From Schmidtea polychroa (lineage: Eukaryota), in assembly GCA_044892525.1 (NCBI GenBank), contig CM097885.1:30692001-30756000 (forward strand): DNA of 64,000 nt, written 5' to 3'. Made by a program: the position numbers and the translations under genes. Below are positions 8,364 to 40,972 of the stretch, piece after piece. The notes below the pieces were generated by a model. The model made no database searches and was not told the origin of the DNA. It worked only from the letters and a program-made list of their open reading frames with translations. Within the stretch, counting starts at the first letter, position 1; the number at the start of each line of letters is the position of its first letter.

Positions 8364-9390
8364 AGTAGTAGGATGTGTCACCACTGGCACACCCCCGGGG
8401 GGGCTAAAATTTTTTTTCAAGGTCAAAATTTAAACAAAGACATATGACTCATCAAGGTCATTGAAACAAAGACCATGACTCATCCTTTGACTCATCAAGG
8501 TAATTGAAACAAAGACCATGACTCATCCAATGACTCATCTAATTTCTCAAGGTCATTTAAACAAAGACCATGACTCATCCCATGACTCACCAAGGTCATT
8601 TTCAAGGTCATATGACTCATAATATGACTCATCAAGGCCAAAATTTTTTTCAAGGTCATTTAAACAAAGGTCTCGATTCATCAAGGCCATTTTCAAGGTC
8701 ATATGACTCATACTATGACTCATCAAGGTCATTTTCAAGGTCATATGACTCATCCAACGAGTCACAAAAATTTTCAAGGTCATTTAAACAAAGACCATGA
8801 CTCATCCAAAGTCATTCTCAAGGCCATATGACTCATTCAAGGTCATTCTCAAGGTCATATGACTCATACTATGACTCACCTAAATTTTCAAGGTCATTCG
8901 CAAGGTCACCTGAGTCATTTTCAAGGTCGCATGACTCATCCAAGGCCATTCTCAAGGTCATATGAGTCATCGAGATGAGTCATCAACGTCATATTATTAT
9001 TTTTAAAAAATATTATTTTTATTATTATTTTAAAAAAATATTATTATTTTATTTTTAATTTCTCAAAGTTCTCGCCAACCAAAATTATTCATCGATAGCT
9101 CATTTTAAAGCTCAATCCAAGTCCTTTCCAATGAGCCATATATCTTGTTATTAAGATTATTATTTCTAAAGATATTATTATTATTATTATTATTATTATT
9201 ATTATTATTATTATTATTATTATTTTTATTATTATTATTATTATTATTATTATTATTATTATTATTATTATTATTATTATTATTATTATTACTATTATTA
9301 TAATTATTATTACTATTATTATTATTATTATTATTATTATTATTATTATTATTATTATTATTATTATTATTATTATTATTATTATTATTA
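8364..9390 (+). repeat. left TIR of outer Polinton, including tandem motif array and (ATT)n
   Basis: Inverse-matches 40112-40972 with indels in the repeat array. Confidence 0.9.
8415..8992. promoter_or_regulatory. tandem array of TGA(C/G)TCA (AP-1 consensus) and TCAAGGTCA (NR5A/ERR-type) motifs
   Basis: About 20 TGA(C/G)TCA and about a dozen TCAAGGTCA by eye; mirrored at 40455-40890. Confidence 0.6.
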
Positions 9391-9571
9391 GTGTTTTAAT
9401 AAAGTAAAAATATCATTATTATTATTACTTTTATTATTATGAAACATATATATATATATATATATATATATATATATATATATATATATATATATATATA
9501 TATATATATATATATATATATATATAAATAGGTCTAATAACTTCATTTACAACATTCACAAATATTCATCG

Positions 9572-10140
9572 ATGTCTTCAAACGATCCGCAGGTTTGATG
9601 TTATAATTATTTAGTAATTTAATTATTTTAAATAAGGTACAAGAATTGTCTATTGATTGGGATCATTCCATTTTAATAATAGATAAACTTCTAACAATAA
9701 ATGATGAAGATTATATATTCCTGGCCAAAATAAATAAATCTTTCAAACATCAAGTAATTCAAAATCTATTTGATAAGTTCGGCTTCAATATATCGATGTT
9801 GAAATTAACCAGCTGTATAATATCTATAAATAATATTAACCATACAGAAATTAACATGCTTAAGGTTTTCTGGATATGTATGGATTTCAGGTTCGGAAAA
9901 TATCGCGAGCTTATTGAAATCTTCCTTCTTAATGCATATAAACTTGGTATTAAAATACATAATTTACTGAATGAAGTCAGAAAACAGTTTATTACATGTT
10001 GTATATGTCGAATTCGAGAAGTTTCGATTCTATATCTGCCTTGTGGTCATATCATTATTTGTTCTTTATGTTTGAAAAACTGTAGTAGATGTCAGAGTTG
10101 TGGTGTCATAATCGATGAATCTCATTCAGTGTATTTTTGA
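9572..10140 (+). CDS. IAP/MDM2-type C3HC4 RING protein (exon 1 9572-9592, intron 9593-9636)
   Basis: C-terminal CCICRIREVSILYLPCGHIIICSLCLKNCSRCQSCGVIIDESHSVYF; splicing gives in-frame MSSNDPQ|VQELSIDW. Confidence 0.8.
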
Positions 10141-10452
10141 AATAAATGTTGTAAAACTCCTACTTATTATTATTATTATTATTATTATTATTATTATTAT
10201 TATTATTATTATTATTATTATTATTATTATTATTATTATTATATAATTTCAACTTTCTATCACAAATAACTAAAAACATAGTTGATTATTATAAAATTTT
10301 TAACACAAAAATTATACCATAAAAAGTTGACAAACAAAAATAACTAAATATTTACAAATTTTTTATTCGCCATCATATTTACAAATTTTTATTCAACATC
10401 GTATTTACACAAATATAATCACAATGTTAAATAATTGGCCCAAAATATAACT

Positions 10453-39387: not shown

Positions 39388-39492
39388 TTTTACAATAATT
39401 AAAAATATGATGTTTTATTTATACTAATACTGTATGATTTTGATTGGTTGATAGACTATAAATGTAAAAGAAAGGTTTTGATTTGATACACC

Positions 39493-39993
39493 ATGAAAAC
39501 TATATTCATATTGCTAATTATTATAACGAGTGTGTGCTCACACAATACAACAATAACAGTGGAGCCTTTTAATAAATCAATATGTGTTTGTCCGAATACA
39601 GCCAAGTTGATGGATATTTTATATATTCTCGATAAACCAAAATGGTCAAAGCATCCAGGAAAAAGAATATCTCAAAGATTGGAGAATTTAGAAAACAGTT
39701 ATGAACTAACATTTGAATATATACAAAATATAAAAATTAAATTGATTGATCATATTGAAGTTTTCAATAACTCTATTGCTGAAAATAAAAATAATATGAA
39801 AATTATTGATAAGAAGCATGATTATTTGTTAAAAAAGATTGAATTATTATTAAGAGAAATTCAAACAATCAAAGGATCAATAGAATATCTGAAAATCAAT
39901 TCAACGTTACCAATTTCAAACAATATTGCAGCGAATAGTAGTACATCAATATTTAGTTTACCTTTGTTAATTTTACATTATTTTATTGTTTAA
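39493..39993 (+). CDS. secreted or GPI-anchored coiled-coil protein
   Basis: Signal-peptide-like MKTIFILLIIITSVCS, heptad-rich middle, hydrophobic C-terminus after NSS. Confidence 0.65.
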   Translation: MKTIFILLIIITSVCSHNTTITVEPFNKSICVCPNTAKLMDILYILDKPKWSKHPGKRISQRLENLENSYELTFEYIQNIKIKLIDHIEVFNNSIAENKNNMKIIDKKHDYLLKKIELLLREIQTIKGSIEYLKINSTLPISNNIAANSSTSIFSLPLLILHYFIV

Positions 39994-40111
39994 ATAAATG
40001 TATGTTTTGTTGATTTGTTGATTTGTGAGTTGTTGAGCGTGACAGTACCCTAGTGAGCATTACCCATAGGGGGACAAAATATTTTGTCGGATAGACTCGG
40101 AGTATATAGAT

Positions 40112-40972
40112 TAATAATAATAATAATAATAATAGTAATAATAATAATAGTAATAATAATAATAGTAATAATAATAATAATAATAATAATAATAATAATA
40201 ATAATAATAATAATAATAATAATAATAATAATAATAATAATAATAATAATAATAATAATAATAATAATAATAATAATAATAATATCTTTAGAAATAATAA
40301 TCTTAATAACAAGATATATGGCTCATTCGAAAGGTCTTGGATTGAGCTTTAAAATGAGCTATCGATGAATAGAGAACTTTGAAAAAATTAAATATAAAAT
40401 AATAATATTTTTTAAAAATAATAATAAAAATAATAATATTTTTAAAAAATAATATGACCTTGATGACTCATCGCGATGACTCATATGACCTTGAGAATGA
40501 CCTTGGATGAGTCATGCGACCTTGGAAATGACCTTGACGAGTCACAGGATGACTCAGATGACCTTGAAAATTTAGATGAGTCATAGTATGAGTCATATGA
40601 CCTTGAGAATGACCTTGAATGAGTCATACGACCTTCAGAATGACCTTGGATGAGTCATGACCTTTGTTTAAATGATCTTGAAAATTTTTGTGACTCATCG
40701 GATGAGTCATATGACCTTGAAAATGACCTTGATGAGTCATAGTATGAGTCACATGACCTTGAAAATGACCTTGAAGAGTCATGGTCTCTGTTTAAATGAC
40801 CTTGAGAAATTTGATGAGTCATCGGATGAGTCATGGTCTTTGTTTCAACGACCTTGATGAGTCACATGTCTTTGTTTAAAATTTGATCTTGAAAAAAAAT
40901 TATTTTTTTAAACCCCCCCGGGGGGGGGGGTGCCAGAGGTGACATGTGCCAGTGGTGACACATCCTACTACT
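40112..40972 (-). repeat. right TIR of outer Polinton
   Basis: Ends GTGCCAGTGGTGACACATCCTACTACT; inverse of left TIR. Confidence 0.9.

Follow-up and report, generated by a model that had tools for sequence, protein, structure and literature searches.

Accessory and core genes decay alike per base in a probably dead copy of a young, high-copy Polinton/adintovirus from Schmidtea polychroa

This report deals with a Polinton/adintovirus copy at positions 8364..40972 of a 64,000-nucleotide stretch of the Schmidtea polychroa genome, referred to here as the window (assembly GCA_044892525.1, contig CM097885.1, positions 30,692,001 to 30,756,000 of the forward strand). An initial annotation, made from the letters of the window, had described terminal clusters of intact small genes around a broken core and proposed that they form an adenovirus-like host-control kit, possibly retained after replication was lost; it added that their intactness could simply reflect smaller target size. 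A comparison with sibling copies bears out this last remark. Very probably, a young element present at high copy number inserted here, into an AT-rich animal genome, and is now dead at this site; all of its genes were under selection while it replicated and decayed at one rate per base after insertion. The accessory genes of the window look intact because they are small targets, not because they have been kept by the host. The anatomy and copy number of the element, the equal decay, the purifying selection on shared variants, and the folds and families of the encoded proteins were all established by observation, as laid out below.

The initial delineation of the element stands, AGTAGT ends and a target duplication being present at its limits; however, 14.4 kb of the interval (16941-31389) belong to a nested, different Polinton, without which the outer element measures ~18.2 kb. 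It has terminal inverted repeats (TIRs); the adintovirus identity and the terminal position of the accessory clusters are supported, and all the open reading frames (ORFs) that had been listed were found at the starts given for them. The features are as follows:

8364..40972, strand not assigned: outer Polinton/adintovirus copy, delimited by AGTAGT ends, target duplication, and an empty site
8364..9345, plus strand: left TIR; its tandem sub-repeats contain many copies of TGACTCA and CAAGGTCA
9572..10140, plus strand: IAP-type C3HC4 RING protein without a BIR domain; open, with a predicted 44-nt intron at 9593-9636
10453..14455, minus strand: main exon of pPolB, pfam03175 type; broken
15401-14456, minus strand: predicted last leader intron, joining the leader to the pPolB main exon
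15402..16048, minus strand: five predicted pPolB leader exons (16048-16000, 15952-15890, 15840-15742, 15691-15605, and 15554-15402)
16591..16933, minus strand: exon 2 of the adenain protease (Peptidase_C5, E 1.7e-6)
16941..31389, strand not assigned: nested, different Polinton with its own TIRs (double jelly roll [DJR] capsid, PLA2-integrase, A32 ATPase, pX, pPolB)
31430-31426, minus strand: exon 1 of the adenain protease, at the ATG position; the intron between the exons holds the nested element
31458..32678, minus strand: major capsid protein (MCP), candidate by position and relatives; two in-frame stops
32675..33043, minus strand: small basic virion-core-like ORF; open, conserved in metagenome relatives
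33036..34103, minus strand: minor capsid candidate
34049..35215, minus strand: rve integrase with a chromodomain (rve E 3e-5)
34675-34827, minus strand: predicted integrase intron (GT, a pure ATT run, TTTTAG)
35277..35810, minus strand: pX-like protein; one in-frame stop at 35523-35525
35833..36460, minus strand: A32/FtsK-type packaging ATPase; frameshift within 36150-36200
36560..36997, plus strand: short TBP-like protein of 145 aa; open, second repeat canonical, first degenerate
37070..37472, plus strand: Cys-containing accessory gene, missing from the initial annotation; predicted intron at 37122-37168, frameshift within 37290-37325
37886..38296, plus strand: likely OB-fold single-stranded DNA-binding protein (SSB) of the T7 gp2.5/ASFV CP312R type; open
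38425..38795, plus strand: acidic protein; open, predicted 41-nt intron at 38447-38487
38873..39387, minus strand: Bcl-2 homologue with two exons; open, predicted 44-nt intron at 39047-39090
39493..39993, plus strand: secreted or GPI-type glycoprotein, predicted from hydropathy; open
40112..40972, minus strand: right TIR

The genome assembly (781 Mb, with four large scaffolds) contains 461 termini of this family with no more than one mismatch and at least 150 copies of the TBP-like gene, all scored ones being 97-100% identical; the family probably comprises a few hundred near-identical copies. Decay was scored in 86 stretches: 60 anchored on a terminus (L031-L090, drawn from the first 100 of the 461 termini listed, all on chromosome C1), 20 on the TBP-like gene, and 6 on the protease gene. 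Only matches of at least 80% identity were kept, and breaks in the leader or in short first exons did not enter the count. The terminus set shows 76 breaks in 101.8 kb of core sequence and 30 breaks in 40.6 kb of accessory sequence (0.75 versus 0.74 per kb, p = 1.0), which corresponds to an accessory-to-core ratio of 0.99 (95% confidence interval, 0.65-1.51). This is the outcome that the initial annotation itself had named as telling against retention. The TBP-anchored set gave 34 breaks in 81.2 kb of core and 12 in 28.1 kb of accessory sequence, the rates without the TBP gene being 0.42 and 0.43 per kb, respectively. For all 86 stretches without the anchor genes, they are 0.56 and 0.72 per kb (p = 0.16). 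Of the pPolB copies, 8 are covered over more than 90% of the scored length, and each of these is broken, as expected from that length.

The window copy follows the same pattern. Its core genes are broken as claimed, pPolB more extensively than had been implied: its frame shifts once within 14320-14400 and once within 11670-11715, and an in-frame stop lies at 11894-11896 (shared by 0/9, 0/11, and 0/16 siblings). The two stops in the MCP gene are found in 0/40 and 0/41 siblings, the stop in the pX-like gene in 0/32, and the ATPase frameshift in 0/62. The accessory ORFs, described as intact, include one that is not: the overlooked gene at 37070-37472 carries a frameshift common to 0/38 siblings. 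All eight breaks (seven core, one accessory) are thus private, being absent from each of the 9-62 siblings compared, and therefore arose after insertion. Seven breaks in ~9.6 kb of core against one in ~3.1 kb of accessory sequence is a difference within chance (binomial p = 0.69). The TGA stops do not call for a different genetic code, a reading that was rejected because each of them is private to the window copy.

Before insertion, these genes were under constraint. Among the variants present in at least three copies, the nonsynonymous-to-synonymous ratio (N/S) is 0.08 in the core genes (184 S, 59 N) and 0.17 in the accessory genes (152 S, 109 N); among singletons, it is 0.40 and 0.54, respectively (Fisher p = 1e-24 for the core and 3e-11 for the accessory genes). 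Purifying selection in the replicating family acted on the core and, when pooled, on the accessory genes, which therefore served the replicating element. Taken one by one, the contrast is significant for the TBP-like gene (p = 0.004), whose shared N/S of 0.04 is core-like, and for the Bcl-2 gene (p = 0.0002; shared N/S, 0.13). The accessory genes are less constrained than the core (p = 3e-5); this weaker constraint, along with allele swapping, would fit host-interaction genes of a recombining virus-like population.

It appears very improbable that selection, whether on the side of the host or of the element, kept the accessory cluster working as an adenovirus-like early programme once the replication and capsid genes had been lost. 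Such a view could draw on the six of the seven initially listed ORFs that are open, stand-alone genes beside four broken core genes in the window, on the 5 of 60 terminus stretches that contain accessory but no core sequence, and on the few breaks in the Bcl-2 gene. Against it stand the equal per-kb disruption in the siblings, the broken 37070 gene, and the chance-level contrast in the window; moreover, a TIR element that undergoes internal deletion is expected to keep the genes beside its ends. The commonest gene-poor derivative keeps only a RING gene, which is broken in 15 of its 17 copies, mostly by shared frameshifts, and must therefore have been amplified after breaking. Less far-fetched, but still unlikely, is the idea that the acidic, GPI-type, and RING ORFs are passengers useless to the element. 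These three have the highest shared N/S (0.24-0.39), non-significant contrasts, and break rates of 0.8-1.3 per kb; the GPI-type gene is shortened in several siblings, and only the RING has matches among the 80 metagenome loci discussed below. However, shared N/S remains below the singleton value in each of these genes, the lengths and signals of their predicted introns are fixed (44 nt in 13/13 siblings for the RING, 41 nt in 15/16 for the acidic gene), and another lineage has, at the corresponding position, a RING allele of 41% identity that preserves the C3HC4 pattern.

Several observations weigh against the reading preferred here, equal decay of a dead insertion whose genes all served the replicating element. 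With 3 breaks in 13.2 kb, the Bcl-2 gene is broken least often, so that retention might apply to this gene alone, and in the L060 derivative the right cluster is complete and flanked by matched target duplications. The sample consists of 86 stretches, at least two of which (L074 and L075) look like one duplicated locus, and assembly indels may inflate frameshift counts in core and accessory genes alike. The per-gene contrasts are not significant for the RING (p = 0.15), GPI-type (0.39), acidic (0.12), SSB (0.09), and 37070 (0.11) genes, the Bcl-2 signal leans on one divergent allele, and the N/S values are based on site counts uncorrected for mutation bias. Finally, the introns, the join between leader and pPolB, and expression remain predictions.

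That join changes the reading of the ORF at 16048, initially described as a separate protein rich in SUMO-interacting motifs (SIMs). The region 16048-15402 is most likely the polymerase N-terminus, to judge from its splice signals: the phase-1 donor that closes the last leader exon is compatible with the acceptor at 14455, where the main exon of pPolB starts. Across 13 sequences, those of the window and 12 siblings, an AG acceptor lies before the first conserved motif of the polymerase in 13/13, and the phase-1 donor, located after ES-x-T at the end of the acidic last leader exon, is present in 10/13, spanning two pPolB lineages of ~70% identity. The predicted intron is 735-1360 nt long in the window and the siblings that have the donor; the three sequences without a matched donor resemble the window solely downstream of the leader. 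The alternative, that this region encodes a separate small E1A-like protein ("Oncoid"), or both such a protein and the polymerase through alternative splicing, is unlikely. The region does have its own ATG, TATA, and CCAAT boxes, SIM-like acidic content, and a large variability among siblings (44-79% identity). In 2/13 siblings, the last leader exon contains an LxCxE followed by a CK2-type site, in accord with the position and motifs of the Oncoid ORFs upstream of PolB described in section 3.2 of PMC8502044. However, the donor and acceptor are kept across both pPolB lineages, and LxCxE is absent from the leader of the window copy. As for promoter-like motifs in general, TATAAAC is found upstream of 16048, 32678, 33043, 35810, 36460, and 38425, but not of the TBP-like gene; CCAAT boxes occur before the leader, before the 37070, SSB, Bcl-2, and GPI-type genes, and, as a single box, upstream of the integrase.

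Short, AT-rich GT-AG introns are predicted in other genes as well, most of them breaking the frame unless spliced, with splice signals kept across siblings and the two pPolB lineages. The protease intron is 37-39 nt long (GT..AG) in 13 siblings, the RING intron likewise shows GT..AG, that of the 37070 gene is 47-51 nt long in 3 siblings, and that of the Bcl-2 gene is 44 nt long in 13/16. The ATT-repeat intron of the integrase occurs in 13/13 siblings with lengths of 54-189 nt, a multiple of three in 12/13. TTAGGT stands at each of its boundaries, metagenome relatives show no gap at this position, and the intron seems to have been gained recently at a duplicated AG|GT site. Poly-isoleucine coding was rejected as an account of this insertion, which is variable in length and located inside the catalytic core of a gene with an N/S of 0.09. 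Core genes are reported to be intronless in intact vertebrate Mavericks (PMC8097293) and in nematode Mavericks (bioRxiv 10.1101/2022.07.12.499685), whereas GT-AG introns are predicted here in the protease, integrase, and pPolB genes; introners have been described inside dinoflagellate Polinton-like elements (PMC11957031). A literature search, with thin coverage of subscription journals and Repbase reports, returned nothing on spliceosomal introns in animal Polinton core genes and nothing on a gp2.5-type Polinton SSB. It is possible, though tentative, that the element represents a splicing-dependent lineage of animal DNA viruses, with host-type introns gained in its core genes (among them the microsatellite intron of the integrase), a conserved TBP-SSB module, and E1A-like motifs (SIM-like acidic patches and, in some lineages, LxCxE-CK2) on rapidly changing polymerase leader exons.

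The TBP-like assignment of the ORF at 36560 holds, with a match to PF00352 (E 2e-13; 50.8 bits versus a cut-off of 22.9). Two complete repeats of ~90 aa are not present: Pfam aligns one stretch (residues 64-125), and the first repeat aligns partly. The protein belongs to a family of short TBP-like proteins (92/100 candidates), for which viral contigs gave 32 pattern matches, none of them confirmed. Among 80 metagenome loci kept of 118 confirmed, Polinton core genes lie beside the TBP relative in 39, including 27 of the 37 loci of at least 3 kb, and an SSB is encoded on the same contig in 20. The TBP-like and SSB genes thus form a conserved module shared with distant Polintons; these two are probably transcription and replication genes and not the terminal host-control cargo that had been supposed. 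A scan of the cargo in TBP-bearing metagenome Polintons (L119, L128, L145, L169, and L178) covered 52 ORFs, 9 of which had matches, revealing a dual-specificity phosphatase, an E2 ubiquitin-conjugating enzyme, RINGs, KilA-N, and C2H2 fingers.

The SSB, initially a tentative assignment, is now borne out by a predicted model with an OB fold and gp2.5-type elaborations. This model, with a pLDDT of 93.7, was built from a 37-row alignment; a single-sequence fold (pLDDT 41.5) was uninformative. A HMMER search of representative sequences gave 41 matches, and the alignment omits the near-identical match and four long repetitive ones; a word-index search found a near-identical SSB as its sole match, and the Atlas search gave no usable one. 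The top four VIA rows (DUF2815, ASFV CP312R, T7 gp2.5, and Enc34 SSB) have Z scores of 6.8-7.2, with 101-130 residues aligned at a root mean square deviation of 2.8-4.5 and an identity of just 4-15%. Foldseek placed the Enc34 SSB first (E 0.07), and 28 giant-virus models match at E of 0.001 or less. With Z scores below 8 and such low identity, the protein is likely, with moderate support, a T7 gp2.5-type SSB.

The ORF at 9572 does encode a C-terminal IAP-type RING: it matches zf-C3HC4_3 in Pfam (E 8e-7), and its top 10 PDB matches are all RINGs of the IAP family (cIAP/XIAP; best E 4e-8). Pfam shows the RING alone, without a BIR domain, and the PDB matches begin at residue 105 or later. The "full ubiquitin/SUMO programme" initially inferred for the element reduces to this BIR-less RING and the polymerase leader exons.

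The ORF at 39387, noted earlier as Bcl-2-like, is part of a two-exon Bcl-2 homologue with a BH1-like WTR, a BH2 WIxxNGGW, and a hydrophobic C-terminal tail. The PDB matches of exon 1 are solely Schistosoma Bcl-2 structures (E ~1), with weak matches to A1/Bfl-1 and Bak as well; those of exon 2 are to Bcl-xL in 45/45 cases (best E 0.07). The PF00452 cut-off is passed by alleles that are 69-74% identical in exon 1, whereas the exons of the window fail it by themselves. In 4/4 aligned alleles, BH1 reads WTR, without the glycine of the canonical NWGR, a motif that is present in other paralogues. A protein search with exon 1 found two unspliced relatives, of which the one with 69% identity enters low-complexity sequence at the same point. 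Among 13 fetched stretches, the closest Bcl-2 outside the element is L202 (G000:C1:268543800-268544800; 24% identity over 87 aa); it has WSR in BH1, also without the glycine, no intron at the position seen in the element, and an apparent break right after GGW. This comparison suggests that the Bcl-2 gene may have been captured without a host intron and gained a new one later. For dozens of Bcl-2 matches in the genome, the surrounding open frame reaches a length of up to ~3,090 aa, as would be expected if they belonged to giant retroelements of the Burro type (PMC6431247). Along with the weak Schistosoma matches, these Burro-like frames suggest a flatworm host.

The protein encoded at 39493 has hydrophobic N and C ends, five N-glycan sequons, and a coiled-coil-like middle. 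Pfam gave no family for it or for the acidic protein at 38425, the former having only weak coiled-coil matches; for the 37070 gene, no family was found, and the Atlas search gave just sub-0.9, unrelated matches. The listed Pfam, PDB, and fold matches include no homologue of the adenovirus early-region proteins (E1A, E1B, DBP, E3, and E4), so that the comparison with adenovirus early regions is so far an analogy only.

As regards the core, pPolB matches pfam03175 (protein-primed PolB, Alpha type) above the cut-off (E 2e-9), and the Pfam search, the only one made for it, showed no OTU match at its N terminus. The capsid labels are those of candidates, based on position and on relatives of the MCP. 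These are 57-59% identical, and 2/5 give DJR-like matches below the cut-off (E 0.008-0.017); the window MCP has no direct Pfam or PDB match and no pairwise support. A fragment of the ATPase matches A32 with E 0.004 (1e-6 in a relative), and a relative of the pX-like protein weakly matches Adeno_PX.

AGTAGT is found at both ends of the element, 8364 and 40972, and the TIRs are ~0.9 kb each. The element sits in a foldback repeat of the host, the intact opposite arm of which holds the empty site at 43225-43232. Owing to this preserved site, the 6-bp target duplication (8358-8363 and 40973-40978, five of six bases matching) could be recognised, one base having changed since. A 637-nt portion of the left TIR contains 20 copies of TGACTCA and 15 of CAAGGTCA (shuffle means, 0.23 and 0.05), and at least three copies are present in the first 900 nt of 55/60 and 56/60 of the L031-L090 termini, respectively. 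TGACTCA is AP-1-like and CAAGGTCA nuclear-receptor half-site-like in sequence. Both are dense in the TIR sub-repeats (8364-9000 and 40440-40972), where tandem repetition inflates the counts.

The nested Polinton, with an exact 6-bp target duplication and a full gene set of its own, is located at the 3' end of the predicted intron of the outer protease. Its ends (16941-17214 and 31117-31389) are 274-bp units with inverted AGTAGT...ACTACT, as if a miniature element capped both sides. The arms of the foldback target, ~2.8 kb each (6525-8363 plus 40973-41945 versus 42227-45060), carry a RING-H2 ORF (7235-7903), a third copy of which lies at 51434-52569; this ORF was rejected as a gene of the element, being outside its ends in another repeat. 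By eye, a beta-tubulin-like ORF is seen at the start of the window (3-815), and a gag-pol-like retroelement and two further ORFs among 45116-49288, 53969-54817, and 61803-62498.

The gene-poor copies (L033, L037, L042, L044, L049, L052, L060-L062, L066, L070-L072, L076, L080, L081, and L087) have the ends of the outer element, measure 7.5-9.7 kb where both ends are visible, and in several cases show matched target duplications. A second pPolB lineage (67-74% DNA identity) has the same protease and capsid module (left arms of L111-L116; window 57010-59363); L113 is the copy with the 41%-identical RING allele. Swapped alleles were seen for the 37070 gene (39-47% versus 93-98% identity), the Bcl-2 gene (72%), and the middle of the minor capsid gene, whose centre (33446-33886) is exchanged for another allele in many siblings. 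Module mosaicism of such kind is the subject of bioRxiv 10.64898/2026.10.13.758929. In L031, L047, and L057, a terminus of the outer family is followed by genes of the inner family (82-92% identity); these are chimeras or further nestings.

The adintoviruses of Starrett et al. 2021 (PMC8502044) resemble the window element in their TIRs, pfam03175-type PolB, rve integrase, FtsK-type ATPase, adenain, and pX-like gene, and that paper already presents Bcl2 and IAP homologues, Oncoid ORFs, and the adenovirus analogy. Its main text has TBP solely in a figure legend, in the section on non-animal datasets, and the preprint text contains no whole-word SSB, DBP, or RING, whereas the window has an SSB and a RING; the supplementary genome maps may already show TBP, SSB, or RING genes. 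In contrast to its description, the Oncoid position in the window appears to be occupied by spliced pPolB leader exons. Vertebrate Mavericks (Barreat & Katzourakis 2021, PMC8097293) share the 5'-(AGT)2 ends, the 6-bp duplication, a core flanked by two accessory regions, the degradation of most copies, and purifying selection on the core. In nematode Mavericks (bioRxiv 10.1101/2022.07.12.499685), TIR-adjacent variable cargo with intron-containing genes is likewise swapped between elements, but that cargo consists of proteases and kinases. The planarian Burro LTR elements, as reviewed in PMC6431247, are also mobile and carry BCL2-like and IAP-related domains, in their case within a retroelement polyprotein with BIR repeats, unlike the separate spliced genes of the DNA element in the window. 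In one planarian, Polintons are described as piRNA targets that are de-silenced during differentiation (PMC8532177).

For splicing, the biochemical roles, and virion formation, we infer the following scheme. The host would transcribe and splice a nuclear DNA virus or transposon, whose transcription the short TBP-like protein could assist. The pPolB, with its variable, spliced acidic leader, and the gp2.5-type SSB would copy the linear genome; the capsid proteins, protease, and ATPase would package it; and the integrase would insert it with a 6-bp duplication. Survival of the host cell, or removal of its proteins, is probably the task of the captured Bcl-2 homologue and the IAP-type RING ligase. 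On this reading, all genes are under selection only during replication and, after insertion, decay at one rate per base.

Anti-apoptotic cargo is already known in adintoviruses (PMC8502044); less usual are the predicted introns in core genes, the polymerase leader with its LxCxE motifs in 2/13 siblings, and the module of TBP-like and SSB genes, although supplements of the cited papers may show some of these genes already. A preserved host-control kit would have meant viral domestication, whereas the sibling data point to a target-size effect. With a few hundred near-identical copies present in one genome, selection on accessory genes becomes measurable, and the sibling data indicate that the Bcl-2 and TBP-like genes are of use to the element while it replicates. 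The SSB assignment hints at the way in which displaced strands are handled in these elements and ties them to the SSBs of phages and giant viruses. To judge from the predicted introns and polymerase leader, adintovirus genes can be misassigned when annotation relies on ORFs alone. Should the lineage prove to be splicing dependent, many adintovirus Oncoid ORFs may turn out to be exons of the polymerase, which would then engage Rb or SUMO itself.

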